Positions 5,795 to 54,596 of a DNA stretch of 64,000 nucleotides are shown one piece after another. The stretch's first letter is position 1, and each line of letters starts with the position of its first letter. The stretch is from positions 128,849-192,848 of the forward strand of contig CASDSU010000028.1 in assembly GCA_949283575.1 (NCBI GenBank). Reading direction: 5' to 3'. The stretch comes from an uncultured Eubacteriales bacterium. GTDB lineage: Bacteria; Bacillota; Clostridia; TANB77; UBA1234. Both the position numbers and the translations under genes were made by a program. The notes under the pieces were generated by a model. It worked only from the letters and a program-made list of their open reading frames with translations. It searched no databases and had not been told where the DNA came from.

Positions 5795-5872
5795 GGTGGA
5801 TGTAGCTCAGTTGGTTAGAGCGCCAGGTTGTGGCCCTGGAGGTCGTGGGTTCGAGTCCCATCTTTCACCCCA
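5795..5872 (+). tRNA. tRNA-His (anticodon GTG) with G-1 and encoded CCA
   Basis: Hand-folded cloverleaf: G-1:C73, D-arm GCTC/GAGC, anticodon stem CCAGG/CCTGG, loop TTGTGGC, T-arm GTGGG-TTCGAGT-CCCAT, CCA at 5870-5872; one U-U mismatch in the acceptor stem. Confidence 0.85.
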
Positions 5873-5908: not shown

Positions 5909-5984
5909 TGGGCTGTAGCCAAGCGGTAAGGCACCAGACTTTGACTCTGGCATTTCGGCGGTTCGAATCCTCCCAGCCCAGCCA
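5909..5984 (+). tRNA. tRNA-Gln (anticodon TTG)
   Basis: Acceptor TGGGCTG/CAGCCCA, D-loop AGCGGTAA, anticodon stem CCAGA/TCTGG with loop CTTTGAC, T-loop GGTTCGAATCC, CCA encoded. Confidence 0.85.
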
Positions 5985-6042
5985 AATTTCATGATTTTTA
6001 AGAGAATTTTAGAAAACTTGTAAGAAACTTAAAAGTCATCAA

Positions 6043-6080
6043 ACCCAGCATTCGAGCTTATTTGGATGCTGGGTATTTTT
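6043..6080 (+). terminator. rho-independent terminator after the tRNA operon
   Basis: CCCAGCAT...ATGCTGGG stem followed by TATTTTTAT. Confidence 0.6.
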
Positions 6081-6181
6081 ATTCTCAGATTTTTTGAAGT
6101 TCTGAAAAGTATCGATTTCAAGTTACAAATTTAAGTTTCAGAAAAATTAGGTTCCAAAAGACTTTTAGGAAAGGAGAAAAA

Positions 6182-6742
6182 ATGGAAGCTAATTTCTATA
6201 AAATTAACGAATCCTTAGAAAATTCATTTTATCAAATCCCAGAAGAATTATTCAAAAACCCTATATATAAAGAAAAATTAGGCTTAGAAGCTAAAGTTTT
6301 ATATGCCTTTTTACTAAGCAGAATGCGATTATCTGCTCAGAATAATTGGATTGATGATGATGGGTATATCTATCTTATCTACAAACGTGTCGATGTTCAA
6401 AAGAAACTTAATCTATCAGATAAGACAGTTACAAAGGCATTCAAACAACTAAAAGAAGTCAAGTTAATACACGAAATAATCCAAGGAATTAATAAGCCTA
6501 ATATTATCTATTTAGCCAAAATAAAACACATGGATATGCCACAGAACTGGACTCGTAAAAATTACGAGCCCGGACACGGAAAAAATACGACTCCGAAGTC
6601 GGAAAATTTACGACCAATATATATAAATAAAGATAAAGAAAATAGATATAATATGCAAACTTCAAAATTTGACAATAGGTTTAGAGATAACAAAGGACAG
6701 TATGATGATTTAGATAAATATATTGAAAATTTTAAAGATTAA
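6182..6742 (+). CDS. replication initiator protein A, N-terminal domain family (RepA_N)
   Basis: LGLEAKVLYAFLLSRMRLS...W.DDDGYIYL motif typical of Firmicutes plasmid/ICE RepA_N; RBS GGAAAGGAG. Confidence 0.7.
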   Translation: MEANFYKINESLENSFYQIPEELFKNPIYKEKLGLEAKVLYAFLLSRMRLSAQNNWIDDDGYIYLIYKRVDVQKKLNLSDKTVTKAFKQLKEVKLIHEIIQGINKPNIIYLAKIKHMDMPQNWTRKNYEPGHGKNTTPKSENLRPIYINKDKENRYNMQTSKFDNRFRDNKGQYDDLDKYIENFKD

Positions 6743-6766
6743 TAAATAAAAAGGAGATGTCTTAAA

Positions 6767-7120
6767 ATGAAATTAGAATACTTAAAAAACGGAGATTATT
6801 ATATACCGAATATAGAATTAGGTTATGAAAATGTAAAGGTGAATTTAGGCAAATATGGAAGGCTAAGAGAAAAATATTTGAGAGAGCATAAACCTTCTTT
6901 ATTTGAGCATTTAAAGATGAGTGAAAGATTAATTCCTCATCTATCAAGTATAGATAAAGAAGCTAAAGCTTATGAAGCATTATTAATAAAACAATTTACT
7001 GAAAAGGAAAATGTTAATGAGAAATTGAAAGTAACAAATCAACTTGGGTGGGTAAAAAATATGAATTCAATTAAGCAAAGAGCCCAAGAAATTGTGTGCA
7101 ATGAAATGATTTATAATTAA
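6767..7120 (+). CDS. TnpV-like transposon-encoded protein
   Basis: KLEYLKNGDYYIP...G.YG.LR..YL..HKP...HL..ID..A...LKV.NQLGWVKNMN.I..RA.EIV resembles TnpV of Tn4451-type elements. Confidence 0.65.
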   Translation: MKLEYLKNGDYYIPNIELGYENVKVNLGKYGRLREKYLREHKPSLFEHLKMSERLIPHLSSIDKEAKAYEALLIKQFTEKENVNEKLKVTNQLGWVKNMNSIKQRAQEIVCNEMIYN

Positions 7121-7150
7121 AAATTCAACTATAGAAAAGAGGATGATTTT

Positions 7151-7474
7151 ATGCAAGAAAAAGGCTTATATGATTTAAGATTATGTGATTTCAATGAACT
7201 AATAAGTGAGGTAAAAGTAGCACTTAGAAACAAAAATAAAGAATATAAAAAGTTGCAAGACAAGTTAGAAAATATTATGGACAATCATCCAAATTTACAG
7301 ATGATTATGGAAGATGATACCGAGTTTAATTTAACAAAAACAGATTGTAAAATGCTTCAGAAATTATTTGAATTACATATAGAAATTCAAGCTTTGGAAG
7401 AACAAGAAATATTTTTCTTAGGTGGCAGAGAAGCTTACTATTATTTCAAAAATATTGGAATTTTAAAAGAATAA
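7151..7474 (+). CDS. hypothetical small helical protein of the mobilization module
   Basis: ORF with RBS AAGAGGATGA; position conserved between TnpV and MobC. Confidence 0.45.
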   Translation: MQEKGLYDLRLCDFNELISEVKVALRNKNKEYKKLQDKLENIMDNHPNLQMIMEDDTEFNLTKTDCKMLQKLFELHIEIQALEEQEIFFLGGREAYYYFKNIGILKE

Positions 7475-7479
7475 TTTAG

Positions 7480-7600
7480 AAGAAAATGCGGGTAAAAGCA
7501 GTGTTTCAAATGCGTTGAAAAATAAAAAGCAAGCAACGCATTTGTACTCCCGCACAAATACACTTGCATAGCTTTAGAATTAAAGCTATGTGATGGGAGA
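7480..7600 (+). promoter_or_regulatory. candidate origin of transfer (oriT) upstream of mobC
   Basis: Inverted repeats CAAATGCGTTG(7507-7517)/CAACGCATTTG(7534-7544), GCGGG/CCCGC arms, and palindrome TAGCTTTAGAATTAAAGCTA(7570-7589), directly upstream of MobC-relaxase. Confidence 0.4.
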
Positions 7601-7647
7601 ACCCAAGCCCCTTTTAATAAAAATTGTAAATGAAAGGAGTTAAAAAT

Positions 7648-7971
7648 ATGAGAAGAAGATCGATTAAAAAACAACTTTGGCTTAGTCAAACTGAAAATAA
7701 AATTTTGAAAGAAAAATCTAAAGTTACAGGACTAAATGAGTCCGAATTAATTCGTAGTTTTATAAAAGGTTATCGCATAAAAGAACAACCAACTGAAGAA
7801 ATAAAACAATTTCAAAAAGAGCTTTCTGGAATAGCAAATAATATAAATCAAATAGCAAAAATAGCAAACACATATCAGTTTGTAAAGCTAGATGATTTTA
7901 AATATATATCATCAAAACTTGCAGATTTTATTTTAAGATTTGAGAAGAAAATTTATTCAAGAGAGAAGTGA
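7648..7971 (+). CDS. mobC: MobC-family relaxosome accessory protein (ribbon-helix-helix)
   Basis: SELIRSFIKGY and GIANNINQIAK motifs; RBS AAAGGAG before ATG at 7648. Confidence 0.7.
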   Translation: MRRRSIKKQLWLSQTENKILKEKSKVTGLNESELIRSFIKGYRIKEQPTEEIKQFQKELSGIANNINQIAKIANTYQFVKLDDFKYISSKLADFILRFEKKIYSREK

Positions 7972-7977
7972 TTTAAA

Positions 7978-9276
7978 ATGGCTGTTATAAAAATTAAAAC
8001 TATAAAAAATAATTTAGAAGCCGTAGTAAACTATGCTCAAAATGGAGATAAAACCGAGAATGAAATATTAGTAACTGGAGTTAATTGTGTGCCACAAACT
8101 GCATATAGTCAAATGGCACTAACAAAGAAATTTTTTCATAAAGAAAGTGGTAGACAGGGTTATCATATTATTCAATCTTTTAATGGAAAAGAAGTTTCTC
8201 CAAACGAAGCCAATGAGCTTGGAACATTACTTGCAGAAGAATTATTTGGAGATAAATTTCAAGCTATAGTTTGTACTCATATAAACAAAGATAATATACA
8301 TAATCACATCGTTTTGAATTCTGTTTCATTTGTTGATGGAAGTAAACATCATAATTCAAAACTTGACATAGCATTAATAAAAGATAAGTCAGATGAGCTA
8401 TGCAAAGAGTATGAATTATCGGTAATCCAAACCTCAAAAGCAAGCAAAACCAATAAGACATATAAAAAAAGAATTTCAAAATACAATAGAAGTAATTCAA
8501 AGATGCTACAAGTGAAAGCTGACATTGATGATGCAATTGCTCAAAGTAGAAAAATGAGTGAATTTTATGATAATTTAAAAATCAAAGGTTATGAAACTTA
8601 CAAAAGAGGTATGTATCTTTCAGTAAAATTACCTTACTTTGCAAGGAATATTCGACTAGAAAGAGCTTTTGGAGAAGAATACTCACTTCATAACATTCAA
8701 GATAAAATTTATTATAGCGAAAAAACCGAAAATCAGAAAAATGGAATTAATAAGAAATATTATAGGAAAGTATATAAAGGACCTAAAATAGATAGCTTTA
8801 AGCTTAAATTTAGCCCATTTTATAGGTCATATGTTAGATGGCTTTACAAACTTGGAAAGTTACCACCTAAGATAGAATACGAAGAATTAACACCAGAATA
8901 TTTTAAGCAAAAAAGAGAAACACAAAATATTCTTGATGAAATTAGTTTTGTGGCTAGAAATAATATCAATAACATTCAAGATGTTCAAAATTGCGAAGAA
9001 TGGATTTCGGTTAAATTAACTAAAGTTAAAGGAGAGCGAGAAAATTTGTGGAGACAGTATAATAAGGCTAAATTACCAGAGAATAAAATTGAAATAAAAA
9101 TGAAAATTGATAGTAAAACTTGTGAAATTAATGCTTATAGCAATGAGCTAAAGATTTGTAGAAGGTTTATGTGGAGACGAGAAATACTTGGGAAAGAAAT
9201 AAGATTATTAAGAATTGAATTAGCAGAAAGTAAAAGAATAGTAAAAATGAAGAATTTATCACGTGAAAAATATTAA
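7978..9276 (+). CDS. MobA/VirD2-family relaxase (mobilization nuclease)
   Basis: N-terminal relaxase fold with HxxxDxxHxH metal motif (HINKDNIHNHIVLN), conserved Tyr region near the N-terminus, C-terminal coiled-coil. Confidence 0.8.
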   Translation: MAVIKIKTIKNNLEAVVNYAQNGDKTENEILVTGVNCVPQTAYSQMALTKKFFHKESGRQGYHIIQSFNGKEVSPNEANELGTLLAEELFGDKFQAIVCTHINKDNIHNHIVLNSVSFVDGSKHHNSKLDIALIKDKSDELCKEYELSVIQTSKASKTNKTYKKRISKYNRSNSKMLQVKADIDDAIAQSRKMSEFYDNLKIKGYETYKRGMYLSVKLPYFARNIRLERAFGEEYSLHNIQDKIYYSEKTENQKNGINKKYYRKVYKGPKIDSFKLKFSPFYRSYVRWLYKLGKLPPKIEYEELTPEYFKQKRETQNILDEISFVARNNINNIQDVQNCEEWISVKLTKVKGERENLWRQYNKAKLPENKIEIKMKIDSKTCEINAYSNELKICRRFMWRREILGKEIRLLRIELAESKRIVKMKNLSREKY

Positions 9277-9420
9277 ATATACAATTATAAATGAGACAAC
9301 AGAATCACGAAAAGATAGACTCATATTAAAAATATAATTTCAATAATTCTAAATACAGATTTGAAATAAAATGGTATTTATTTTATAATTCTGTTATAGA
9401 TAAATTGAGGAGGAAATATT

Positions 9421-9807
9421 ATGGATGAAAAATTTAATCAAGTGAAAAAATTAAATAAGATATCTAAAATTTTAACATTTATCATTGCAGGAGTATGGAT
9501 AATTGGTGGAATAATTGTATTTCAATTATATACTCTTTCTGATTTACAAATGGCATTTAAGGTTATAATAGATTTAATTATAAATAGTTTTAAAGGAAAA
9601 TTAAGTTTAGACGTCATATTAATTGCTTTAATGATAATAGATTTTATTGTTCTTTGTATTCAAACAAATAAATTAAAAGCTAATTGGAAAAAATTTATGA
9701 TAATTGAGTTGATAGTTAAAACATTAGTCTTATTTTACGTGGTAGGAGGATATATTTTATCTTTTTGGTATATGAATAGTTTTGTATTTGATGCATATGG
9801 AATATAA
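9421..9807 (+). CDS. small membrane protein (3-4 TM)
   Basis: RBS GAGGAGGAAA; hydrophobic helices. Confidence 0.5.
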   Translation: MDEKFNQVKKLNKISKILTFIIAGVWIIGGIIVFQLYTLSDLQMAFKVIIDLIINSFKGKLSLDVILIALMIIDFIVLCIQTNKLKANWKKFMIIELIVKTLVLFYVVGGYILSFWYMNSFVFDAYGI

Positions 9808-9859
9808 AATAAAAGGATACTTTCTTACTTGCACCAATTGTGCGAGTAAGAGTGATAAA

Positions 9860-9882
9860 GGTGCGACAAAAAATGTCGCACC
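9860..9882. repeat. perfect hairpin GGTGCGACA-AAAAA-TGTCGCACC; member of a local repeat family (other copies at about 12680-12705 and 13320-13345)
   Basis: 9-bp stem with A5 loop, preceded by ACCAATTGTGCGAGTA; a similar unit ACCAATGGTGCGAGTA plus GTACGACATTTTTCGTCGCAC lies at 12668-12705. Confidence 0.55.
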
Positions 9883-9927
9883 TTTGTCTTGCATCAACAG
9901 CACACTTTTTACATATTTTTTATCGGT

Positions 9928-10164
9928 TCACTTGTTCGGTTCTAGTATATTCCAATAACCTTTTCTATCAGAACCTATTCTTTCAATAATGTGTGTTTCT
10001 TTAAGTTTGCGTATATGATTTGTTATTGTACTTTTTCTAAATCCTGTTATTTCACATATTTCAACTTGTGTAATTTGAGGATTTTGATTCATTAGCTTAA
10101 TGATTTGAGAATCTATAATTTCTGTCTCTTTCTTCTGTCCATTTCTATTCACTTTCCAACACAT
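9928..10164 (-). pseudogene. orphan C-terminal winged-helix fragment, homologous to the HTH tail of the AlbA_2/HATPase_c_4 regulator at 13408..14871
   Basis: 78-aa ORF aligns to the C-terminus of the 487-aa protein (ILQFLADRDGAKNSEIANFIERSPSTTRKILAELKNKNII vs IIKLMNQNPQITQVEICEITGFRKSTITNHIRKLKETHII). It has no N-terminal domains and abuts the relaxase relic. Confidence 0.5.
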
Positions 10165-10180
10165 CTAAAATAGGTTGAAA

Positions 10181-10245
10181 ATAATGCTTATAGCAATGAG
10201 CTGAATATTTGTAGAAGGTTTATGTGGAGAAGAGAAATACTAAAA
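10181..10245 (+). repeat. relic of a second relaxase gene 3' end (about 63 bp, roughly 93% identical to 9128..9190)
   Basis: AATGCTTATAGCAATGAGCT[G]AA[T]ATTTGTAGAAGGTTTATGTGGAGA[A]GAGAAATACT matches the last codons of the relaxase at 7978..9276. Confidence 0.65.
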
Positions 10246-10396
10246 AAGAAACAAATATATTAAAAACACAAGAAATTTCTAAAGTCATTTTTAAAAGGAA
10301 AAAAGAAAAAGTACGATAATTATAAAAATGGCAAAGAAATTAAATCTCTGCCATTTCTTTATAACGAACTATTTTCACTCCTACTGATAATATTAA

Positions 10397-11533
10397 TTAC
10401 ATATTTTCAAAAAACAATTCATAAGTATTATCTGATTCATTTAAAAATTTTAATTCTACACACGAAAAATCCAACTCTTTTGGTATTTCAAAAACAACAT
10501 AAAATTGAGTAAGGTCTCCTTCGCAGTATTGCTTCTTTATTTCTCTTGGGATTATTGTTGCTCTAGTACTTCCTTCCAAAGCATTTTTTAAATCATAGGC
10601 TGAAACTGTAACTTCTGGTTTTACAGCAGAAAATGTTGATGTTGAATTAAACGGGAAATCTATATCAGTTAAATCTACATCAAATAATGCACAATACAAA
10701 TTTTTATTTTCATTTATTGTGTATTTAGGGAACAAACTTGTACCGCCATATCCTTCTGCAAAAGCTATATTATATTTACCAGCTTTTTCAAAAGCATTAT
10801 TATAATCTTCGATAATTTCAATAGCTGTGTTGCCACTATATATTTCTTTCATTTTTAAATGTAATGAACTCATTGAAATTTTATTATTTCCATTTTCATC
10901 AAGTCCAGTACCTGAGTGAAGATTAACAGTACCAGCTTGTCCTTTTAGGGCTGGTGTATCTGTATGAACCTTTGCTAAGGAAGCAAAACTTTCTTTTGGC
11001 AATTCTGGAATTTGAGTACTTGGTGTTATTCCTCTATACGTATCATCAAGTATTACAGAATTTGTGTTTCCATCCCATTTGATTTCTATATCAAACAAAT
11101 TTGAGATTGCACGTACAGGCAAATATGTAGTTCCTTGATAAGAAAGAGGATATACTACATTTTCGTTTACATCTTTAAAAGTTTGATACATTCCATCGTA
11201 TGAAACTCTTATTTTGTCATTTAATAGAACTTGAATATTTTCTGTAGGTTCAGCAATAAAATTTTCAATTGATTGCGCTGAAATTTTGTCTAATTCGCCT
11301 TCACCTAATTCTACAGCATTCAATTTTTGATTCCAATTAATTCTAATATTAAATATGCTAGAAATTGATCTTATTGGAAGATATGTAGTTCCTTCATAAG
11401 ATATAGGATAAACCTTCTGTCCACTTACATTTTTAAATTCTTGAATTTCATTATTATACAATATTTTCAATCCTTTGTTTAAAACTACATTAACATCTTG
11501 ACTTGCATATACGCAATTAGAGCAGAAAAACAT
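10397..11533 (-). CDS. secreted protein with two copper-amine-oxidase N-terminal-like (stalk) domains; probable true start upstream, disrupted by a T8 homopolymer
   Basis: Two repeats of Y.GTTYLP.R.IS..F...I.W. Removing one T from the run at 11553-11560 gives MKRIFLVISILAMFFCSNCVYA signal peptide in frame. Confidence 0.65.
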   Translation of the reverse strand: MFFCSNCVYASQDVNVVLNKGLKILYNNEIQEFKNVSGQKVYPISYEGTTYLPIRSISSIFNIRINWNQKLNAVELGEGELDKISAQSIENFIAEPTENIQVLLNDKIRVSYDGMYQTFKDVNENVVYPLSYQGTTYLPVRAISNLFDIEIKWDGNTNSVILDDTYRGITPSTQIPELPKESFASLAKVHTDTPALKGQAGTVNLHSGTGLDENGNNKISMSSLHLKMKEIYSGNTAIEIIEDYNNAFEKAGKYNIAFAEGYGGTSLFPKYTINENKNLYCALFDVDLTDIDFPFNSTSTFSAVKPEVTVSAYDLKNALEGSTRATIIPREIKKQYCEGDLTQFYVVFEIPKELDFSCVELKFLNESDNTYELFFENM

Positions 11534-11641
11534 TGCAAGTATCGAAATTACTAAAAAAAATTCTTTTCATATTTCATACCTCTTTTCTTTCGATTTGTTA
11601 ATTATATTATATCATTTTTAACTGTTACATTATAGAAAATT

Positions 11642-12508
11642 TTATTGTTTTAAGAATTCTTTACAAGCTTGATAAGAATATGTTACAAGATTTGCTAAAG
11701 ATTTATAATTCATTTCATAAAATGGTTTAACAAATTCGGTACTAATCTCTTTGCTGTTGTATGTTATAGATAAATGAGAGTATTTCTTAATAATTTTATC
11801 TAATTCTTCTTTTGATTTTAACTCATTTTCGTTAATTATAAATTTGCAATAAATTTTATATGTTGTTACTGGTGTACGTCGTATTTTTTTAGATACAATC
11901 TTAAATTCGAAGTAATTTCCATTACTATCTTTATAACCATTTTTATTTTCTAATTCTGAAATTTGTTTTCTTAAATTTCCAATAGCAAATTCTTCATCTG
12001 GAATAAATTTTTTTGAAGATTTTTTCTGTGTTTTTAATATATCCACTTGATTTTTCAGTTTTTTAATTTCTTCTCTTTTATTAAGACATTCGGTCAACTG
12101 ATATCTTTCAAATAAATATTCATCTAAATTATAATACCAAATACTTTTATAATAATCTGAAATTACAACTGTTGCTATGCCAACTCCGCAAGCAATTGGA
12201 AGTATAACTGCAATAATTATACTTAATACATTATTAATAGTTATTAAATTTATTATAAATGATATTAAAGATATAAATATAATTCCGAATACACCTAAAA
12301 ACACTTTGACTCTAGTTTCTTTTTTATTCTTTTCTTTCAATTTCTTGTATTCTTCATCTGAAATCTGTGTTATTTCCTTTATATCTTTATATCTTTTTCT
12401 GTAATCAATTCTTTTACCTATATCTAATCCTAATCCACTTCTAATCTCACTTGTTATTAATAAACCTATAAATATTATTATTAAATATATTATTGTTTTT
12501 AAGTTCAT
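11642..12508 (-). CDS. membrane protein with coiled-coil region (hypothetical)
   Basis: N-terminal TM, second TM pair, K/E-rich helix; RBS present. Confidence 0.5.
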   Translation of the reverse strand: MNLKTIIYLIIIFIGLLITSEIRSGLGLDIGKRIDYRKRYKDIKEITQISDEEYKKLKEKNKKETRVKVFLGVFGIIFISLISFIINLITINNVLSIIIAVILPIACGVGIATVVISDYYKSIWYYNLDEYLFERYQLTECLNKREEIKKLKNQVDILKTQKKSSKKFIPDEEFAIGNLRKQISELENKNGYKDSNGNYFEFKIVSKKIRRTPVTTYKIYCKFIINENELKSKEELDKIIKKYSHLSITYNSKEISTEFVKPFYEMNYKSLANLVTYSYQACKEFLKQ

Positions 12509-12724
12509 TTTTAAACTCCTTTATTTAAACTTCGTCAATCACTAATATATATTCTAAAATTATGTTATTTTCCATATAGCAACCATCCATTTTCGGCCGA
12601 GGTACATTTTTTAGTAATTATATGAGATATCTTGCAGTACAATTATTTATATATATTTCTCGTACCAATGGTGCGAGTATTGTACGACATTTTTCGTCGC
12701 ACATTTTATGAAATTATCTATGCA

Positions 12725-13333
12725 TTAACTTGATTTTAAACAATCTAATAATTCCATCCAACTTCTTTTGTCACATTCAAAACCATAATCTTCCGCATTT
12801 TCGAGTTCGAATATCATTTTTTCTTTTATCTCATTGGTTATTACCTCAACATTAGCAATAATAAAACTAAGAATTACACCTGTTATATATGTTTTTCTTC
12901 CTAAACCGTATTTTATTGCTTCTAGCATTAATAGTTCCAATTCATTGTTCGTAATGTTGATATCTATAACACCATCAAATTGTTTATCTTCAAATGATTG
13001 TTGCAGAGCTTTTTCTATCTTATTAGCAAAAGTAAGCCACTTCTCTTCATTATCTAAAGGTCCATAGAGTGGACTTGCGTTTCTTTCTTTGATATCTCTA
13101 ATAAAAATCATTTTCATTTTTTCTGACATATAATCAAGATTATCTATAACTATTTTCTGAAAAGTATCTAATTCAATATATTTAGCAGTATCTCTTAATT
13201 CGTTTCTTAATACACTAGCTAAAATTAATTCAAAATATAAATTTTTATTATTTATTTTCATAAAATCACCACTTTCTTGATTTATTATCTGTGAAATTTC
13301 CTGTGAAGTTATCTGTGCAGAATAATGCGACAA
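12725..13333 (-). CDS. hypothetical protein
   Basis: ORF with plausible internal start MKINNKN; no recognisable domain. Confidence 0.45.
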   Translation of the reverse strand: MSHYSAQITSQEISQIINQESGDFMKINNKNLYFELILASVLRNELRDTAKYIELDTFQKIVIDNLDYMSEKMKMIFIRDIKERNASPLYGPLDNEEKWLTFANKIEKALQQSFEDKQFDGVIDINITNNELELLMLEAIKYGLGRKTYITGVILSFIIANVEVITNEIKEKMIFELENAEDYGFECDKRSWMELLDCLKSS

Positions 13334-13344
13334 AAGTGCGACAT

Positions 13345-13413
13345 TACTCGCTCACTACTCGCTTTTACTCGCTCATTACTTGTTTCTACTCGCTCATTAC
13401 TCGCTTATTACAT
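13345..13413. repeat. tandem array of about 6.5 copies of a 10-11 bp unit TACTCGCT(C/T)(A/T)(C/T), helical-phase periodicity
   Basis: tactcgctcac|tactcgcttt|tactcgctcat|tacttgtttc|tactcgctcat|tactcgcttat|tacattc. Unit is the reverse complement of the GTGCGAGTA/GAGCGAGTA motif found at 9848 and 12676. Confidence 0.75.
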
Positions 13414-14871
13414 TCTTATTTTATATTTTCCTTTTGGGTCATTTTGAGATATTCCGTTCCAATAAATTATATTTTTATTTTTTAATTCAGCTAAAATTTT
13501 TCTTGTTGTAGAAGGGCTTCTTTCAATAAAATTTGCGATTTCTGAGTTTTTGGCACCGTCTCTATCTGCTAAAAATTGTAAAATTTTTCTTTCTGTTTCA
13601 TTGAAATTGTTCCAATTATCACTTATTGCACTATTCTTCTTTAAATCATCTTCTTGTCTTGCGTTTCTAGATAAATAATTATTTTTTAAAGTCAAAATAA
13701 ATATATCACTACTTGTTACTTTAAATTCGGGTTCTTCTAAAAAATATTTTTTCATTTCTCTATAAATTCTTGGTATTCCTTCGCTTAGTTCTCTTACAAC
13801 ACCAAATTCAGTTAAAGTTCTGGCTATAACACGATTTCTAGAGTATCTTTCTGTTTGTAAATTCTCTAAAGTTACTAATCCAGCAAGTTTTCCAGGACTT
13901 CTAATTTCCATTCTGTTGTTATAAATAAAAATCTTTATATATTCTCCACCCATTACATAATTTCTATGTGTAACAGCATTTGTAACACCTTCAACATAAG
14001 TGAATTCAGGGTATTCAGGTATAGTTTCAAATTCCCCTTCTGAATTTAAGTGTGTAGAATCTCTTAACTGTGTATGAACAAATTCTGGAACTTCCTTTAT
14101 TGCTTTATATAGTGGCAAGGCAAAAGTTTTATCTTTAATAATATTTAAATCTTTTCCGGGTAACATTTCATTTCCATCAAATTTTACAATTCTAATTCTG
14201 GCTGTAGGCAAATAAATTGATGGATCTTGAGCAAATAATAGTACGCCTGCTTTAGTTAATAATTTTTGTCCATTCACAATACTTTCTCTTAAAAAACCTC
14301 TAGCTCTTAAGACTTCTTCATCAGATTTATCTTCAGCGTCTATTTTTTGTTTATATATGCTTAAAACTTCCTTATCTATTATATCAATTGTAGCATAAGG
14401 AACCAACTCATCTTCAAATGAAACATCGGGTCTATCCATTTTCAATACTTGGATTTGCTCATCTGTTAATTTGATAGTTGAGTCACCTCGTCTTAAATAC
14501 ACTTCATCTTTTTGATTTCTAATTAATTTATTTAAACTAATCGCAATATGAAGTAACAAAACAGTATCATCTTCATTTTTTACATTTACTACGCTTAATT
14601 CTTCATATTTGATTTCTGGTTCTGCATTTAAATATTGAACACTTTTTCTAAATTGATTTAACTTATCTGGACAACTATTAAATCCAACAATCTCTCCATT
14701 GTTAGAAATTCCTACAGCAAGTATTCCTCCATCTGCATTTGCCATACCTGCAATATGATTTGCAAGGTCTAGTTCACTTATACTTGAACTTTTTCTATCA
14801 AAATTTTGATTTTCTCTGTTATTACATAAATATTCTAATGTAATAGCAGGATTTATTTTAGATGAAATCAT
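13408..14871 (-). CDS. AlbA_2 (Schlafen-like) / HATPase_c_4 / winged-helix putative ATP-binding regulator (RecG-C-terminal-like family)
   Basis: Architecture typical of the 'putative DNA-binding / ATP-dependent DNA helicase RecG C-terminal' family; C-terminal wHTH; operonic with the upstream gene (14-nt gap). Confidence 0.6.
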   Translation of the reverse strand: MISSKINPAITLEYLCNNRENQNFDRKSSSISELDLANHIAGMANADGGILAVGISNNGEIVGFNSCPDKLNQFRKSVQYLNAEPEIKYEELSVVNVKNEDDTVLLLHIAISLNKLIRNQKDEVYLRRGDSTIKLTDEQIQVLKMDRPDVSFEDELVPYATIDIIDKEVLSIYKQKIDAEDKSDEEVLRARGFLRESIVNGQKLLTKAGVLLFAQDPSIYLPTARIRIVKFDGNEMLPGKDLNIIKDKTFALPLYKAIKEVPEFVHTQLRDSTHLNSEGEFETIPEYPEFTYVEGVTNAVTHRNYVMGGEYIKIFIYNNRMEIRSPGKLAGLVTLENLQTERYSRNRVIARTLTEFGVVRELSEGIPRIYREMKKYFLEEPEFKVTSSDIFILTLKNNYLSRNARQEDDLKKNSAISDNWNNFNETERKILQFLADRDGAKNSEIANFIERSPSTTRKILAELKNKNIIYWNGISQNDPKGKYKIRM

Positions 14872-14885
14872 AAGTTACCTCCTAA

Positions 14886-15815
14886 TCACTTATTTTTTCT
14901 TTTTCTAGTATTAGCTATATTAGCCTTATTTCTACATGTTGTTGTATCATATTCAGCTTTTAAATTTTCAGCTATAAATGGTTTTCCACAATATTTACAT
15001 AGCCTAACTTCTGTTCTGCCATTTGTTTCGTTTAATAATAACATTGCATTAATTGCAGCTCTCAACGAATGAAAATTCCACTGAAATTTTATTTTTCCAT
15101 TTTCTATACCATATTTAAAATTAATTTTATATACTTCTTGGTTAAGTATCGTTTCGGCATAAAATTCTTTTAAATCAGGTTCTAAGTTACCATATAAATA
15201 AGTACCAATTACTCCTTTAGTGACATATACGCTTTCAGCAAAATCTATAATTTCAGATATTGGCTCTGCATAATTCTTTGAAAAAATAAAATCATTTAAA
15301 CGGTCACCTTCAACTTGTATAAGATTAGCGTCTAAACCAGAATTTCGGTGCAAATCATTAACTGTCATTTTTTTAGACCAATCAATCTTTTTATCAGGCC
15401 AAAAATATCTTTGCTCAAAATCTATTATTGATAATGAACTATCTAATTTTGAAGAATATGAGATTTCATTATCTTTCTCTAAAAAGTCAAAATTTTTAGG
15501 AAAATATCTAAAATTGCCTAACAACCCATATTTTGATACAAAATCTAACACAACTTTTTGAAATTCTTTTGTTTTACTCTTTGCTTCATAAGTTAAATTA
15601 GTATTGGTAAATTTTATAGTTTCATCTCCATTTACCATTTCGCCTATAATCATTAAATCCTTTAAAATATCATTTTTAATTTCAAAAGGGTCATAGGTAA
15701 TAGGCACTGCGTTTTCATCAGGTAAAACATAAAGAATATTATTATTTTTTTCAATTTTATATTTACTATACTTACACCATTTTGACATAAATTCGATTTT
15801 TTCTTCTTTTATCAT
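14886..15815 (-). CDS. hypothetical protein with C-terminal zinc-ribbon-like motif (CKYCGKPF...C) and basic tail
   Basis: ORF with RBS; CxxC...C at C-terminus followed by RKRKNK; no known domain recognised. Confidence 0.5.
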   Translation of the reverse strand: MIKEEKIEFMSKWCKYSKYKIEKNNNILYVLPDENAVPITYDPFEIKNDILKDLMIIGEMVNGDETIKFTNTNLTYEAKSKTKEFQKVVLDFVSKYGLLGNFRYFPKNFDFLEKDNEISYSSKLDSSLSIIDFEQRYFWPDKKIDWSKKMTVNDLHRNSGLDANLIQVEGDRLNDFIFSKNYAEPISEIIDFAESVYVTKGVIGTYLYGNLEPDLKEFYAETILNQEVYKINFKYGIENGKIKFQWNFHSLRAAINAMLLLNETNGRTEVRLCKYCGKPFIAENLKAEYDTTTCRNKANIANTRKRKNK

Positions 15816-16018
15816 TTCATCACCTCAAAAAAATTCATAAAAACACAAGAAAAATCTTGACTTATTTCGAATGATAATATATATTTGAAATAAGTTAGAA
15901 ACTATAATATTTCTAACACATTATAGTTTGTTTCTAAGATATATTTAAATTATATATCAAAAGTATTACAAAGTCAAATATATCTAAAGTAAAAAATGAT
16001 GAAAGGAGGGATGAACAC

Positions 16019-16222
16019 ATGAGAGATAAAGCTTTAGAATCAAAACCAATGCCAGTACTGTACTCAACAGATGATGTATGCAAAATGTTTCATATCAGTA
16101 GGCTTACTTGTCTAAACCTATTTCGCAGAAATGACTTTCCAGCTCAAAAGTTTGGACGAGCCTACAAAGTGGAAGCAAATGCACTAAATGAATATCTTAG
16201 CAAAAGACATATCTTGGCATAA
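16019..16222 (+). CDS. xis: excisionase-family DNA-binding protein (Xis, MerR-like HTH)
   Basis: 67 aa, small basic HTH protein immediately upstream of the integrase; RBS AAAGGAGGGATG. Confidence 0.65.
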   Translation: MRDKALESKPMPVLYSTDDVCKMFHISRLTCLNLFRRNDFPAQKFGRAYKVEANALNEYLSKRHILA

Positions 16223-16362
16223 AAAGAAAGAAGACTTAGAAAATGGCGTTTCTAAATCTTCAACACGAACCAGGGAATGTCCCAAGCTCTAACCTATGAG
16301 AAGATTATAACACAATAAAGTAATAGTTTTCAAGACATTCCCTTAAATTTTAAGAGGGATCT

Positions 16363-17778
16363 ATGAAAAAACTTATCGAAGGACGCGACTATTCAGTCAA
16401 TAAGTTCGTAACAAAAGATAAAAGAATTAGCTCTAATAGAAATATATGTCCTACTTGCAAAGATTGCAGCCATAAAAAACTATGTAGCAACAGAGCAACT
16501 CTATACACAATGAAGAAATGCGATAAATGTAGAGAATGCTTAGATAACGACAATTGTGATAAATATTATATCTATGTTAGATATAAAGCCGAAATCTTGA
16601 ATTTAGGGCATAATGAAATAACAGGAGAGCAAATAAGAAAACAATTCAGTGGAAAAACTAAAGAAGAAGCAGTTCAAAATTTATATAAGGCCTACGATGA
16701 AGTAATCAATAATAAGTCCAAAGAAAAAGAGACAAAAATCATTGAAGTATCAATAGTTAGCATAGCAACATCTCTTGAAGAAAAGAAACTCAAGAAAGGA
16801 CTTATTAAATCAAATGGATACAAAACGAATGCAGACACAATAAATAGAATTGGTAAAAACAAATTTGCAAATATTCCAATTCAAAATGTGACTAAAAAGC
16901 AAATTGAAGATTTCTTAGAAGAAGAAAGAAAAAACTTTAATTCTACTATCGGAAAGGATTTCAGAATTCTTAAAGGTGCATATAAAGAGGCACATAGAAA
17001 AGGTTTAATCAAAGAAAATTACTTTGACTCTGATGATCCAATAGAAAAGCCAAAAAGTCATAAGCAAGAAAAGAAAGTTGTAGCTTTAACAGCAAAAGAA
17101 CAATATCTTTTAGAAAGATATATCAATGAAAATTATTCAAAATATAACAACATCTTATTGCTATGTTTATACACAGGAATGCGAATTGGAGAAGTGTTAT
17201 CTTTAAGTCCTGATGCTATAACTTATGACAGTAAAAATGGCACTATCAATATAACAAGAACTTTAACAAGAGATAAAAATGGCAAAGTTATTATAGGAGA
17301 TGTGCCTAAAACTAAGAATGGTATTAGAAGAGTTGACCTAAGAGAAAATTCTAAAAGAGTTCTAGATAATGCACTTAAAGATATGAAGCCTAATCCTTAC
17401 AATGTAATATTTGCACAAGAAAATGGAGAGCTATACAAAGAAAGTATAATTAACAATGCTTTTAAAAGAATTGCAAAGAACGCAGGAATCAAAGTTATAA
17501 CTACCAAGAAGAAAAAGAAGAATGGAAAAACAGTAAATCTAAAATCTAGCACTGTAAATACACATATGCTTAGGCACACCTTTGCAACAAGATGTATCGA
17601 GGCAGGAGTTCCACTTCATATTCTTCAAAAAGTATTAGGTCATTCAAAATTCAAACAACTATTGATACATACGGAGATATCTACGATTACTTCAGGCAAA
17701 AAGAAATGGAAAAGTATGATGAATATATGGCAGAAATACACAATTCATTTAAGAAAGAATGCAAAAAATAAAATATAA
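16363..17778 (+). CDS. int: tyrosine-type site-specific integrase with Cys-rich N-terminal domain; C-terminus frameshifted at an A4 run (17646-17649) before the catalytic Tyr
   Basis: Conserved HMLRHTFATR and VLGHS motifs. The canonical ending ...IQTTIDTYGDIYDYFRQKEMEKYDEYM... is only in the +1 frame, recovered by inserting one A. Confidence 0.75.
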   Translation: MKKLIEGRDYSVNKFVTKDKRISSNRNICPTCKDCSHKKLCSNRATLYTMKKCDKCRECLDNDNCDKYYIYVRYKAEILNLGHNEITGEQIRKQFSGKTKEEAVQNLYKAYDEVINNKSKEKETKIIEVSIVSIATSLEEKKLKKGLIKSNGYKTNADTINRIGKNKFANIPIQNVTKKQIEDFLEEERKNFNSTIGKDFRILKGAYKEAHRKGLIKENYFDSDDPIEKPKSHKQEKKVVALTAKEQYLLERYINENYSKYNNILLLCLYTGMRIGEVLSLSPDAITYDSKNGTINITRTLTRDKNGKVIIGDVPKTKNGIRRVDLRENSKRVLDNALKDMKPNPYNVIFAQENGELYKESIINNAFKRIAKNAGIKVITTKKKKKNGKTVNLKSSTVNTHMLRHTFATRCIEAGVPLHILQKVLGHSKFKQLLIHTEISTITSGKKKWKSMMNIWQKYTIHLRKNAKNKI

Positions 17779-18381
17779 AAGTCAAACTAAATATTTCTGG
17801 AACTTAAGTTCCAAATAAGCATAAAATGCGAAAGACTTGAAATGATTTACGTGTTTTTACAAAAAAAGATTGGTGGTGAAATCACGTGATTACAATGCGA
17901 AAAAGCATAACAAATTTAAGAGATAGCAAAAAAGAGTTTATTTTAGATTGTAAGATTAGAAATCTAAATGTAGAAACAGACGCATTTACAATTCATCTAT
18001 TGCCTGATGATAAAATGAGACCGTTTTCTAATAAATACTAAATATAAAAAAGGACAAGAGCCCGGAAGAAGACTCATTGTCCTTTGCTATTTCTTAAAAA
18101 TTCTCTTGTGATTATATTGCAATTTTCTTAAATTTAAACCCAATCGCATTTTTTCCTTATTTGTAAGATTAAAAGCGTTGCTAATATATCCTTTTTAATC
18201 TCCACATTATAATCATCTAAATTTCTTGCTTTTTTCATCTATTTCCAAAAATACAAAAAATACATTGTAATAAATAACAAACTATATTTTATTACATTTT
18301 CTAGCATTAACTTTATTTCTTTTTTTAAATATTTTTTAAACTTTCTTTTAAATACGGTGTCATCCTCAATTTAAATCATCT

Positions 18382-18696: not shown

Positions 18697-21600
18697 CTAA
18701 TCTAAATCTTCTGGTAATATATTTACAAGTGTATCCTTATCCATTTCTGTCATCATAGAAAGTCTCAACGCCTGATTATTTAACGATCTTTCAAATACAT
18801 TTCTAACATATCTACCATTACCAAATCTCACATCCTGCTTTGCTACTGCAAGTATCATTTTTAACTTTTCTTTCGCTTCTTTTGTCAAATTATATCCATT
18901 TTTTTGATACATTTTATCAGCAATAACCATTAGTTCATCTACTGTATAATCTTCAAATTCTATTACATTTGGGAACCTAGACATAAGTCCCGAATTAACA
19001 TCTAAAAATTCAGTCATCTCTTTACTGTATCCTGCAAGTATTACTACAAGTTTATCACGATTGTCATCCATTAATTTTATTAATGTGTCAATTGCTTCTT
19101 TTCCGAAATCACTATTTCCTCCTTGAGATAACGCATAAGCTTCATCAATAAATAGCACACCATTAAAAGCTTCTTTTACTTTTTCAGTTGTCTTCATAGC
19201 TGTTTGCCCAACGTAGCCAGCAACAAGACCAGCTCTATCTGTTTCAACTAATTTGTCAGTCGAAATAACCCCAAGTTTGTATAGCATATTTGCAACAGCT
19301 CTAGCCATCATGGTTTTTCCTGTACCTGGATTTCCTTTAAAAATCATGTGAAGTGATTGTTCATCATTTACGATTAGTCCCATTTTCTTACGCTCATTCA
19401 TGATTTTTATTCTAGCAGCAAGCATTCTAATGTATTGTTTTACAGATTCTAATCCAATTATGCTATCAAAAATTTGTTCATAATCATATTCACTATTTTC
19501 AGTTTCGTATTTCTTGCCTACATCTTCTGGCAAAATAATATTAATATCATTTAATGCTACATCTTCTAGCATCGCAATTCTTGTACTTTGATTTCTAACA
19601 ATTTCATCAATAAGATTCCTAACCATTCTTCCATTTCCAGAATAAGTAGCTGCTGTTTTCTTCATAAATTCTAATTTTTCAGCGGCAACAGCTCTTGCTT
19701 CATCTGTTATCTGGAACCCTCTCGAGGCAATCATTTTATCAAAAATTTGTGCAAGCTCATCAGCTGTATAATCTGGGAAATCAAGTTTAAGTGGAAATCT
19801 AGATTCTAAACCAGAATTTGCTTTTAAGAAATCACCCATTTCTTTTTCATAGCCTGCAAGTATTACTAAAATTTCTCCTCTATGATCTTCCATAAGTTTT
19901 ATTAATGTGTCAATTGCTTCTCTTCCGAAATCACCATCTCCGCCTTGTGATAACGAATATGCTTCATCAATAAATAATACTCCACCTAGTGCACTATTAA
20001 ACACATCAGTTGTTTTTGGAGCGGTTTGTCCAACATATTCAGCAACTAAATCTGCTCTCGCAACTTCAACAATATGACCTTGTCTTAAAAATCCCATTTC
20101 TTTAAGCATTTGTGAAACAAGCCTTGCTACTGTTGTTTTACCAGTTCCAGGATTTCCTATAAAAATCATATTCAAAGACTGAGTAACATCGGTTGTAACT
20201 CCAAGACTTCTTCTCTTTTCTTGAGCTTTCAAAATATTATATTGATTTCTTAAAAAGTCTTTAACATTATCAAGACCAATTATTTTCGAAAGCGCTTCTT
20301 CTAAATCAAAATTTTCTTTCTTTTCAAGTTCAAAATCTACAAGCTTAATTAATGAATAATCGACTTCATTCTCTTTAACGATTCTAACTGCTTGATTTGC
20401 CATCGCAGATTCCATTACATTTCTAACAAGACGACCGTTTCCATTAGGATTTTTTCCTGTATAAATTTTCGATTCAAAAAATTCTATAAGTGGCTCATAA
20501 CAATTAACATCAATCTTATATTCATTTTGCTTTGCAATATTTTCAGCAATTCGATACATCTCATCAGCGGTATAATCTTTAAAATCAATTATATTTTGAA
20601 ACCTTGATTTAAGTCCGGTTGCTAAGCGAAGCATATCATCCATTTCATCTTTATATCCAGCAAGAATTACAACTAAATTATCTCTATTATCTTCAATCAT
20701 TTTAAGCAAAGTCTCAATTGCTTCTTTTCCATAATCATCCGTTTTTGAATTCAGCAACGAATAAGCTTCGTCAATAAACAGAACTCCTCCAAAAGCTGAT
20801 GCAACGCATTCCCTTGTCATTTGAGCAGTTTCACCAGGATGACTTCCAACTAAATTTGCTCTACTTACTTCTACAAAATGTCCTTTTTCTAGCATCCCAA
20901 GTGCACTCAAATACTCAGCAACAATTCTTGCAATAGTAGTTTTACCTGTACCAGGATTACCTGTAAAAATCATATTAAGCGGAAGTGGCGCAACTCTCAT
21001 TCCCGCACGCTCCCTCATTTTTTGAGCAGTTATATTATCCTCTAAACGATATAAATAATCTTTGACTTCATTAAGTCCAATTATCGAATTAAGTTTAGCT
21101 TTAACAATAGTAAGTCGATTCGAAACCCTCGAATCAGCTGCATTATCTAGCAATAATTTTTCTCCATTAGACTCTATAAAAATTTGCTCATCTTCAACAC
21201 CAATTATATATTGTTGTTTATTACTGATTTTTCCTTTCAATTTATACTCAGAAATTGGTCTAAAAATCCTGTGATCAATTAACAAATTAACACCATTAAT
21301 TCCAGTCGCACTAGAATATGTATTTCTCAAATATTCTTCAAGTGAAAACATATAATCAATATTAATATCTAAATCCTTTTTACATTTTTTCTTAAAATGT
21401 TCTATAAGAGAATTTATCATTTGATTAATTTCTTCTTCAGTAAAATCATTCGCGGTAATAACGTCCTTAATATTTTCTGCAATATCAAGTCCTATTACAT
21501 CTTCAAATTCATGCTCAGGTTTATTTGAAATGAAAACAAAATATTCTCCATTTGTTTTTATCTCAAGAACACCCTTAGGAGTATTAATTTCTATTCTTCC

Positions 21601-22593
21601 ATACTTACACAGGTTCTTAACAAACGTCTTACACGATTCGCTTCCTAGCTCAAAATTCTGAAAAATCATTACTTCTGAACCATCATTAACAGCATCACAA
21701 TATGTATTAACAAAATTTCCAAGAGACTCCTCTTTTTTAAACATTACAAAATCGAAGACTTTTGGCTCACCATTTAAAATCTTTTCCTTTCGCATGTGCA
21801 TAACTAGGTCATCAATTAGATTACTAACAAATACACTTTCATTTGAATAAATTGTAATGATATTTTTCAAGAAATTAGCATCTTGTTGTTTTATGGTATA
21901 TGGTCTTTTAAATGCAAGAACCAAATTACTTACAAAATCTTTTCTCGATATTTTTTCTAAAAGTGATGTCTCTATCTCATCAAAAATTTGATTCAAATCC
22001 TTTTTCTTCTTAGGCTTCTCTTCTTCTTTTTCTGATTCAGGCGAATAGATTGCTTTATACCTTTTTTCATCAATTTTAAAATTAGTTTTGTATAAATCTA
22101 TAAGTTTAACTTGTTCTGCAGTTATTTCTCCACCTTTTTTCATAAAACTAATAATCATTCTAAGTACGCTATCTTCATAAAGCTCTTGCTCTGCAAGCGG
22201 CATGGAAGCGCACGTTTCATCGATAACAGTTTTTAATCTCAAAATATAATTTTTGTTACTTTCATGCCCGCCAAAAGAGAATCCTTTTTTACTTTCTTTT
22301 TTATAAAAATTATATAAATATTCATATTGCTTTTTTGTTAAATTTTGTTTTCTCAAAAAATCATCCAAAAAAGCTACAAACTCTTCTTCTCTTCCCCCCT
22401 CATGAGCACGCGCAATATTGGCAAACAAACCTGTAAAGCAACATGACACCTCAGGTGGCATCTCTTCACTCTTATATAATTTGCCAGCTTGAATACGTAT
22501 TTCATTATTACAAATTGGACAAATCATCGTTGTCTTATTTGAAGAAGTATTTATTTCAGAATTACAGTATGGACATACCGGAATTTTAGCCAT
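18697..22593 (-). CDS. 1298-aa protein: N-terminal zinc ribbon plus three tandem CbxX/SpoVK-type AAA+ ATPase modules
   Basis: CPYCNSEIN...ICPICNNEI zinc ribbon. Three Walker A GNPGTGKT(T/M), three Walker B LFIDEAY(S/A)L, and the VILAGY motif of the CbxX/SpoVK clade repeated three times. Confidence 0.75.
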   Translation of the reverse strand: MAKIPVCPYCNSEINTSSNKTTMICPICNNEIRIQAGKLYKSEEMPPEVSCCFTGLFANIARAHEGGREEEFVAFLDDFLRKQNLTKKQYEYLYNFYKKESKKGFSFGGHESNKNYILRLKTVIDETCASMPLAEQELYEDSVLRMIISFMKKGGEITAEQVKLIDLYKTNFKIDEKRYKAIYSPESEKEEEKPKKKKDLNQIFDEIETSLLEKISRKDFVSNLVLAFKRPYTIKQQDANFLKNIITIYSNESVFVSNLIDDLVMHMRKEKILNGEPKVFDFVMFKKEESLGNFVNTYCDAVNDGSEVMIFQNFELGSESCKTFVKNLCKYGRIEINTPKGVLEIKTNGEYFVFISNKPEHEFEDVIGLDIAENIKDVITANDFTEEEINQMINSLIEHFKKKCKKDLDINIDYMFSLEEYLRNTYSSATGINGVNLLIDHRIFRPISEYKLKGKISNKQQYIIGVEDEQIFIESNGEKLLLDNAADSRVSNRLTIVKAKLNSIIGLNEVKDYLYRLEDNITAQKMRERAGMRVAPLPLNMIFTGNPGTGKTTIARIVAEYLSALGMLEKGHFVEVSRANLVGSHPGETAQMTRECVASAFGGVLFIDEAYSLLNSKTDDYGKEAIETLLKMIEDNRDNLVVILAGYKDEMDDMLRLATGLKSRFQNIIDFKDYTADEMYRIAENIAKQNEYKIDVNCYEPLIEFFESKIYTGKNPNGNGRLVRNVMESAMANQAVRIVKENEVDYSLIKLVDFELEKKENFDLEEALSKIIGLDNVKDFLRNQYNILKAQEKRRSLGVTTDVTQSLNMIFIGNPGTGKTTVARLVSQMLKEMGFLRQGHIVEVARADLVAEYVGQTAPKTTDVFNSALGGVLFIDEAYSLSQGGDGDFGREAIDTLIKLMEDHRGEILVILAGYEKEMGDFLKANSGLESRFPLKLDFPDYTADELAQIFDKMIASRGFQITDEARAVAAEKLEFMKKTAATYSGNGRMVRNLIDEIVRNQSTRIAMLEDVALNDINIILPEDVGKKYETENSEYDYEQIFDSIIGLESVKQYIRMLAARIKIMNERKKMGLIVNDEQSLHMIFKGNPGTGKTMMARAVANMLYKLGVISTDKLVETDRAGLVAGYVGQTAMKTTEKVKEAFNGVLFIDEAYALSQGGNSDFGKEAIDTLIKLMDDNRDKLVVILAGYSKEMTEFLDVNSGLMSRFPNVIEFEDYTVDELMVIADKMYQKNGYNLTKEAKEKLKMILAVAKQDVRFGNGRYVRNVFERSLNNQALRLSMMTEMDKDTLVNILPEDLD

Positions 22594-22735
22594 TTAACAC
22601 ACCATCCTTCTATTTTATATAGTAACATTTTTATAAAAAAGAGTATAGCTATTTTTTAAAAACTATTAAAAAAATGCCATATTTATGATATAATGACCGA
22701 TATTAAAATAATCGTTATTTTTATGGAGATGATTG

Positions 22736-23709
22736 TGAAAAATATGAAACCATTTTTTAGTTTTATTGTTCCTGTTTACAAAGTTGAACAATACTTAAGA
22801 CAATGCGTTGATAGCATACTGTCTCAAGAATATAAAGATTTTGAATTAATATTAGTGGACGATGGTTCACCTGACAATAGTGGCAAAATTTGCGATGAAT
22901 ATGCTAAAAATCATGAAAATGTCTTTGCTTTCCATAAGGAAAATGGAGGACTATCTGACGCTAGAAATTATGGATTAAGTAAGGCTACTGGTGAATATAT
23001 ACTTTTCGTAGATTCTGATGATTTTATTTTTGAAAACTCATTAACTGAAATTGCAAAAATATGTCAAAAATCTAGTGCTGATTTAGTATTTTTAAAAGGT
23101 TTTAAATTTTATGAAAATAATAGCTCTTTAGATGAATTAGACCAAGATATTCATATAGATGATTTTAATAGCAAAGATAAAATATTAAAATATTTAAGTT
23201 CTTTAAATAAGTTTCCCGGAAGTGCTTGTACTAAAGCCATTAAGAGGGAATTTTTAATAAAAAATAATTTAGTCTTTTTAAAAGGTTTACTATCTGAAGA
23301 CATTGATTGGATGATTCGTGTTCTAAAAGAGATTTCATCATGCACTTCTATTAATGTTCCTTACTATTGCTATAGACAAAATAGACTAAATTCAATCTCA
23401 AACTCAATTAGCGCTAAAAATATAAATTCGATTTTAAAAATCATTTCTACTCACGCCATTTTAGATGTTACAAATAAAGAAGATGAATATATTAATAACT
23501 TTTTAGCATATGAATATATGATTCTTATTGCAAATTATGCATCTTTAACCAAAGAAGAAAAAAACAAAGTAGTCTCAGATGTATATGAATATAAATGGTT
23601 ATTAAAATATAAAAACAATTCTAAAGTAAAATTAACATACATAATAAAAAATATTGTAGGAATAAAATTAACTAGTAAACTTCTATACTGCTACTTAAAA
23701 CATAGATAA
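22736..23709 (+). CDS. family 2 glycosyltransferase
   Basis: FSFIVPVYKVEQYL...LILVDDGSPDNS...DSDD motifs (DxD); start either GTG 22736 or ATG 22745. Confidence 0.8.
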
Positions 23710-23748
23710 AACATATTGTCATTCGCAACAAAATAAGGAGAATAAAAT

Positions 23749-28585: not shown

Positions 28586-28661
28586 GTGGCTCGGGTGGTA
28601 GGATTCGAACCCACGTACTGTCAGAGTCAGAGTCTGATGCCTTACCGCTTGGCGACACCCG
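28586..28661 (-). tRNA. tRNA-Gln (anticodon CTG)
   Basis: Reverse complement folds: acceptor TCGGGTG/CACCCGA, D-loop AGCGGTAA, anticodon stem TCAGA/TCTGA with loop CTCTGAC, T-loop TTCGAAT, CCA encoded. Confidence 0.8.
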
Positions 28662-54575: not shown

Positions 54576-54596
54576 ATTGCCTACCTCCCTTCTAGT

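Follow-up and report, generated by a model that had tools for sequence, protein, structure and literature searches.

A mobilizable element in a tRNA-Gln gene of an uncultured Clostridia bacterium, very probably immobilised by an integrase frameshift and the loss of attR

The window (the whole stretch of 64,000 nucleotides analysed here, from an uncultured Eubacteriales bacterium) holds a tyrosine-integrase gene that very probably underwent a genuine deletion of one base, from a run of five adenines (A5) to a run of four (A4), in an integrative mobilizable element (IME) lodged in the 3' end of tRNA-Gln(UUG), which is now an immobilised remnant. A second deletion, of 138 nt, has independently removed the right recombination site (attR) of the same element. 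With both lesions, the element is predicted to be able neither to excise nor to transfer, although no damage is apparent in the genes for replication and mobilisation or in the excisionase. The order of the integrase frameshift and the attR deletion is, for us, a matter of inference.

The reading frame of the integrase breaks at the A4 run, within an open reading frame (ORF) that encodes 471 aa (16363..17778), as the preliminary description of this DNA had claimed when it placed a frameshift at an A4 tract upstream of the catalytic tyrosine. The codons around the run (17646-17649) are GTA TTA GGT CAT TCA AAA TTC AAA CAA, and the ORF ends in ...VLGHSKFKQLLIHTEISTITSGKKKWKSMMNIWQKYTIHLRKNAKNKI (also shown as ...VLGHSKFKQLLIHTEISTITSG...). 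A second ORF in another frame (17592..17771) reads ...KIQTTIDTYGDIYDYFRQKEMEKYDEYMAEIHNSFKKECKK. The closest intact relatives have A5 and encode ...LGHSKIQTTIDTYGDIYDYFRQKEMEKYDEYM... in one frame, whereas the window encodes the same text in the -1 frame. The description had assigned this downstream text to the +1 frame, which is wrong: counted from the integrase frame upstream, it is in the -1 (= +2) frame, since codon starts are at 16363 (mod 3 = 1) upstream and at 17646 (mod 3 = 0) downstream. The closest intact homolog, P0001, agrees at 36/37 positions of its residues 429-465 with the peptide of the alternative frame (E = 9e-24); the tail of the protein as it stands has no similarity to P0001 (E = 26). 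One added A restores the frame, again as had been described, and gives a protein of 469 aa, the length of P0001, P0126, P0127 and P0130, with a tail homologous to that of the intact relatives. The match to the Pfam family Phage_integrase (PF00589, curated cut-off 27.1 bits) rises accordingly from 76.9 bits over profile positions 16-160 of 172 to 85 bits over positions 16-167.

The comparison with orthologous integrases, which had been proposed as a check, gives the same result. At the DNA level, relatives with 91-92% identity (L001-L003, L042 and L043) read TTCAAAAATTC (A5) where the window reads TTCAAAATTC (A4). At the protein level, a search of 5.8 billion proteins returned more than 2,000 integrase homologs, 46 of which we aligned (48-94% identity, 462-499 aa). 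All 46 have the motif LGH-x-x-I-x-TTI-x-x-Y in a single frame, with the tyrosine (Y437) invariant. Within the 90% cluster of the integrase, all other members that cover the frameshift site are in frame. We conclude that the allele in the window is a one-base deletion in an A5 run. Three members of this cluster, which come from other assemblies (P0124, P0125 and P0132), end early (...NNKFKVNL; ...SKEKKQK) and may be other truncated alleles or contig ends.

Could the missing base be an error of sequencing or assembly? The true run would then be A5 and the integrase intact, and the element would still be immobile through the attR deletion. Only one base of a homopolymer is affected, and homopolymers are the classic place for indel errors. 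Yet A4 is a short run, and in runs this short consensus errors are rare on every platform. The window itself provides a measure of this: none of the 1,017 other homopolymer runs of at least 4 bases that lie inside its unbroken long ORFs (40.5 kb) breaks the frame, so the error rate of the assembly is at most a few per thousand runs. The exact 471-aa product and a 100% identical gene are also present in three separately built assemblies, with an NCBI record listed as a fourth source: ERZ17292903 k87_4718189 (141 kb, of which 21.4 kb is identical to the window), whose 'k87_' name suggests a MEGAHIT-style short-read assembly, the single-run Logan assembly ERR10610440_2448 (37.6 kb), and the scaffolded assembly ERZ16268056 scaffold_2 (498.6 kb). 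Such identity throughout the gene might equally be found if these contigs came from one sample or read set, in which case it would reflect the agreement of assemblers rather than independent sequencing, and exact-pattern scans of JGI metagenome contigs and IMG/VR (with A4 or A5 allowed) gave no matches and no independent carriers.

The pattern of substitutions is compatible with both readings. In the lineage of the window, 26 codon changes are synonymous and 8 non-synonymous, much as in the intact relatives (17:12, 21:6 and 28:3), and pairwise dN/dS of the integrase is 0.04-0.08. This is the mark of purifying selection until recently and thus of a young inactivation, but strong purifying selection on an otherwise intact gene is also what an error in a functional gene would show. 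The attR deletion, in contrast, has nothing to do with homopolymers, and since it makes a working integrase superfluous, real decay of the gene is to be expected. The A4 run in separately built assemblies and the approximately 1,000 intact runs make a real, recent mutation much likelier than a sequencing error: we regard the former as highly probable and the latter as improbable. The A4 allele is presumably present in living cells and not just in reads.

The consequences for the protein can be read from its domains. The product as it stands retains residues 1-429, i.e., the arm- and core-binding domains that contact DNA and the part of the active site that provides the Arg, Lys and His residues. 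Four of these residues (R274, H401, R404 and H427) are invariant in the 46 homologs and lie upstream of the frameshift. The protein lacks the nucleophile Tyr437, eight codons past the frameshift, Y443 and the long C-terminal helix (model residues 428-468), the last 40 residues of the integrase being replaced by an unrelated sequence. In this tail, KFKQLLIHTEIST..., no tyrosine falls on or close to the position aligned with the nucleophile, where one is found only once an A is inserted. As the codon of Y437 is in the -1 frame, the gene is a pseudogene of a member of the tyrosine recombinase family. The best solved match is the integrase of Tn1549, in sequence (E = 2e-20 over residues 145-450) as well as in fold (a TM score of 0.71, normalised to the target, for the AlphaFold model of P0001, pLDDT 83). 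The sequence alignment pairs R274 with R225, the residue altered in the R225K crystal construct of Tn1549 Int, T436 with Y379, and Y437 with Y380. In Tn1549 Int, both strand exchange and in vivo excision depend on Y380, and the equivalent terminal helix is swapped between subunits (PMC5871717). Without Tyr437 and the helix, the integrase would be unable to form the covalent 3'-phosphotyrosyl intermediate and would thus not recombine DNA. We therefore expect, from the homology of the 471-aa protein to Tn1549 Int, that its recombinase activity is lost. The invariance of Y437 and its alignment with Y380 support the earlier proposal that a real frameshift would leave the integrase inactive and lock the element in place. 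We searched the window for a second integrase able to act in trans and found no paralogue.

It is very unlikely that the frameshift is instead tolerated or used, either because a rare -1 slippage on A_AAA restores traces of active integrase or because the 471-aa protein without its tyrosine is kept as a DNA-binding factor, a dominant-negative or site-occupying guard of the tRNA-Gln locus. Slippage is conceivable inasmuch as tRNA-Lys is prone to it on A-runs and a -1 slip at 17646-17649 would yield exactly the wild-type protein. Yet the site has no X_XXY_YYZ heptamer (the zero-frame codons are TCA AAA TTC, with only a run of 4 A), and the RNA downstream has no significant structure (17650-17740, minimum free energy -8.7 kcal/mol, z = -0.81, with 39/200 shuffles folding at least as well). 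Nor is the frameshift conserved: every homolog that spans the site reads through it in one frame. Four adenines are also too few for transcriptional slippage. We thus rejected programmed frameshifting and transcriptional slippage, and an integrase restored by either would in any case find no substrate for excision because attR is deleted. The role of a guard draws on the arm- and core-binding domains that the protein retains, with which it could occupy the tRNA-Gln site or poison the integrases of incoming related elements. The attL site is intact, and related IMEs occupy the same site in the same species; if the guard were real, the protein would protect the locus from these circulating elements. 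The shifted ORF stays open for 42 codons, which gives a near full-length protein. But this length is an effect of composition, because simulating the deletion in relatives leaves this frame open there too (ORFs of 452-481 codons).

The loss of attR is a second, independent lesion that the preliminary description had missed. The core of the attachment site, CAGCCCAGCCA, has no second copy in the window at up to one mismatch. In the relatives, the sequence continues beyond the equivalent of 17845 for another 37 nt and ends in CAGCCCAGCCA, a repeat of the tRNA-Gln 3' end. Five independent relatives end in this way, with the right arm followed by CAGCCCAGCCA, so that they possess both attL and attR where the window has only attL. 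A repeat search within the window and directed searches for the right arm and core of the relatives found no attR there, and they failed because of the 138-nt deletion. With attR deleted, the element cannot be excised whatever the state of its integrase. We rejected an inversion, a large insertion at 17845, and an integrase event with the convergent tRNA-Gln(CUG) (28587-28662), because contigs with the empty and the occupied site show that the flank from 17846 onwards natively adjoins tRNA-Gln(UUG). Upstream of the junction, the palindrome TGGAACTTAAGTTCCA is found in all the relatives aligned and could be a terminator or a protein-binding site (Table 1). An Rfam search of the window found only the three tRNAs.

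Table 1. Positions in the window of the element, its genes, the lesions and the attachment site.
Feature	Position	Strand	Evidence or remark
tRNA-His(GUG), which opens the tRNA-His/tRNA-Gln operon with the integration site	5796..5872	+	ARAGORN, Rfam
tRNA-Gln(UUG), 3' end = attachment site	5909..5984	+	ARAGORN, Rfam; with the left arm, intact attL
Core CAGCCCAGCCA: acceptor 3' strand, discriminator base, CCA	5974..5984	+	Sole copy in the window
IME body, ~11.9 kb	5985..17845	+	Left arm 93-97% identical to L024 and L025 from the tRNA on; homology of relatives stops at 17845
RepA_N replication-initiator-like gene, 186 aa	6182..6742	+	PF06970 on the identical contig L004; copy in L035 of 187 aa
TnpV-family gene, 117 aa	6767..7120	+	PF14198; equal length in L028 and L035
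MobC/NikA-like relaxosome accessory gene	7630..7971	+	PF21983, PF05713; weak NCBIfam MbpA match
Relaxase, 432 aa, apparently intact	7978..9276	+	PF03432; 92% nucleotide identity and equal length in L028
Cargo AlbA_2 (Schlafen-like)/HATPase_c_4/HTH protein, 487 aa	13408..14871	-	Pfam; PADLOC matches to a pAgo-associated model
Excisionase-like HTH_17 gene, 67 aa	16019..16222	+	PF12728, E = 1.9e-8; TIGR01764 'excise' below cut-off; 67-aa gene also in relatives
Integrase codons 1-429, original frame	16363..17649	+	Cys-rich and arm-binding N-terminus, SAM-like core-binding domain, catalytic domain to His427
A4 run, frameshift site	17646..17649	+	A5 in relatives that share the TCA codon here
Integrase codons 430-469 and stop, now in the -1 frame	17649..17771	+	Tyr437 codon TAC = 17670-17672
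Out-of-frame tail of the ORF as it stands	17650..17778	+	42 residues, then stop TAA at 17776-17778
Palindrome TGGAACTTAAGTTCCA downstream of the integrase	17798..17813		Conserved in all relatives in the alignments
Deletion junction, 138 nt absent relative to L042 and L043	17845..17846		Missing: end of the right arm (26 nt), core (11 nt), chromosomal flank (101 nt)
Chromosomal right flank, non-coding, then 100-aa and 1298-aa genes	17846..18381		97-99% identical to L038-L046

The state of the site in other members of the species bears this out. We found contigs of the same species by looking up exact copies of the 100-aa protein encoded in the right flank; their flanks are 97-99% identical to those of the window. 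Where the site is empty (L038, L039 and L044), tRNA-Gln is followed by 100-101 nt of flank and then by the sequence that starts at 17846 in the window. Where it is occupied and attR is intact, the element has either a complete, in-frame integrase of 473 aa with A5 (L042 and L043) or a 75% relative whose in-frame integrase is cut by the end of the contig (L040 and L041). The allele of the window is a third state, which lacks exactly 138 nt relative to the other two. The site is polymorphic within one species (empty, occupied and intact, occupied and decayed) and may therefore offer a small natural series for the study of IME turnover in uncultured gut Clostridia. One of the contigs with an empty site (L039, 2943-4444) has an IS1595-family transposase insertion just upstream of tRNA-His, between the equivalents of window positions 5721 and 5728.

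The integrase gene belongs to an IME of ~11.9 kb at the 3' end of tRNA-Gln(UUG). The gene content, which we read from the Pfam annotation of the identical contig L004, is ordered as tRNA-His, tRNA-Gln(UUG), RepA_N, TnpV, DUF6664, MobC/NikA-like, relaxase, cargo, HTH_17 excisionase and integrase. We class the element as an IME because it encodes an integrase (here a pseudogene), a relaxase and MobC; among conjugative pore genes, neither VirB4 nor coupling-protein domains were found in the gene table of the contig. The backbone genes have the same lengths as those of the relatives, and the integrase is the only broken one. The backbone is common to the relatives and the cargo differs between them: a DpnII restriction-modification set in L035 and AAA_15/AAA_21 with AlbA_2 in L028. 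A BLASTN search of 15900-18100 against phage and plasmid collections gave no match, and a protein-pattern scan of species-representative genomes found only relatives with up to 52% identity, in uncultured Clostridia MAGs, and did not return the genome of the window itself. The IME family thus seems undescribed, though of a known kind, and we found no name for it in the literature or in these collections.

Several traits of this family lie outside the question of mobility. The variable cargo slot is situated between the relaxase and the excisionase (L028, L034, L035 and 9400-15900 in the window), and the genes found in it are defence-like (the DpnII restriction-modification set, AAA_15/AAA_21, DUF6076 and AlbA_2/HATPase_c_4). 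In the window, the 3' end of the relaxase gene is present twice, as a direct repeat of 66 nt with 94% identity (9123-9188 and 10176-10241). The interval holds a 128-aa ORF as well as an HTH fragment of 78 aa (9928-10164, minus strand), which in related IMEs has its counterpart, at ~90% identity, in the 3' end of the AlbA_2/HATPase_c_4 genes. To judge by this arrangement, the region looks like a recombination scar from an exchange of cargo. Another related IME (L024, 3909-5369) has taken a different route of decay: an internal deletion joins the equivalents of window positions 6252 and 8234 and fuses the start of RepA_N to the C-terminal part of the relaxase, and an intact integrase and attR are kept.

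The integrase resembles the Tn1549/Tn916-type Int proteins (PDB 6EMY, 6EMZ, 6EN0 and 6EN2) in its two-domain body, with core-binding and catalytic domains, and, once restored, shares with Tn1549 Int the C-terminal helix that follows the nucleophile. The identity to Tn1549 Int is nevertheless only ~23%, and the nucleophile is a single tyrosine (T436-Y437) rather than the YY pair typical of Tn916-like transposases (PMC5871717). In contrast to the relaxed target choice of Tn1549 Int, this family is specific for the 3' end of a tRNA; it also has an extra N-terminal region with eight invariant cysteines, and the copy in the window is frameshifted. These cysteines form two CxxCxxCx5C motifs (window 16447-16557, residues 29-65) that come after the first strand of the N-terminal arm-binding-like domain and before its second. 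No Pfam family matches residues 1-143, and the Cys-rich region is modelled by AlphaFold with moderate confidence (block-mean pLDDT 65-85). It may be a metal-binding insertion, apparently undescribed for tyrosine recombinases.

As a whole, the element is like the IMEs of Firmicutes, e.g., those of streptococci and Faecalibacterium. They have in common an integrase, an excisionase, a relaxase and a relaxosome accessory gene without conjugation pore genes, insertion at a tRNA 3' end accompanied by a short direct repeat, and variable cargo between backbone modules. It differs from the catalogued IMEs in its combination of RepA_N, TnpV, DUF6664, MobC, relaxase, HTH_17 and Cys-rich Int, in its target, tRNA-Gln(UUG), and in its origin in uncultured gut Clostridia. 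From the intact IMEs it differs in its missing attR and its integrase pseudogene. Prophages and islands that are cryptic or defective are likewise fixed in the chromosome by a frameshifted recombinase gene and the loss of one attachment site; unlike cryptic prophages, the element of the window has no phage genes and is mobilizable rather than viral. It is an ordinary mobile element that is decaying while trapped in the chromosome, one more case of a known process: gut Firmicutes are described as commonly harbouring ICE/IME remnants devoid of recombination genes or sites (PMC12084326), and decay by such losses is described as common in the IMEs of Firmicutes (PMC12084326; see also the review PMC5704250). 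The biological significance of the case is small. It is a clean example of a mobilizable island fixed by a frameshift of 1 nt and a 138-nt deletion of attR, and it is well resolved, since a single site offers its empty, intact and decayed alleles for direct comparison. In annotations, the 471-aa 'site-specific integrase' needs a flag as a frameshifted pseudogene, and counts of mobile elements and predictions of cargo mobility should take the island for a remnant that cannot be excised.

Other parts of the window have features of their own. The integration site is adjoined by the gene of a 1298-aa protein (18697-22593, minus strand) with a CxxC-rich N-terminal segment and three AAA + AAA_lid_6 modules, which has only generic AAA matches to defence models (IetA, TRIP13). 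At 43225-45396 (minus strand), the window encodes an acidic, repeat-rich protein that looks secreted and has TP repeats and four copies of EEQPEVVTEDVIDLGAPVVEETV; its gene lies in a GC-rich patch (0.42-0.48) that also has a shadow ORF of 718 codons (43375-45531, plus strand); a Pfam search of both ORFs gave no match. Four very large ORFs (1083, 1866, 1024 and 901 aa; 51324-63271 and 1070-3775, minus strand) have no Pfam family at E <= 1e-5. The second tRNA-Gln (CUG) is on the minus strand and convergent with tRNA-Gln(UUG), and the low-GC stretch between it and the IME (22693-26755) encodes a teichoic-acid-like set (GT2, Glyphos_transf, Polysacc_synt and CTP_transf_like).
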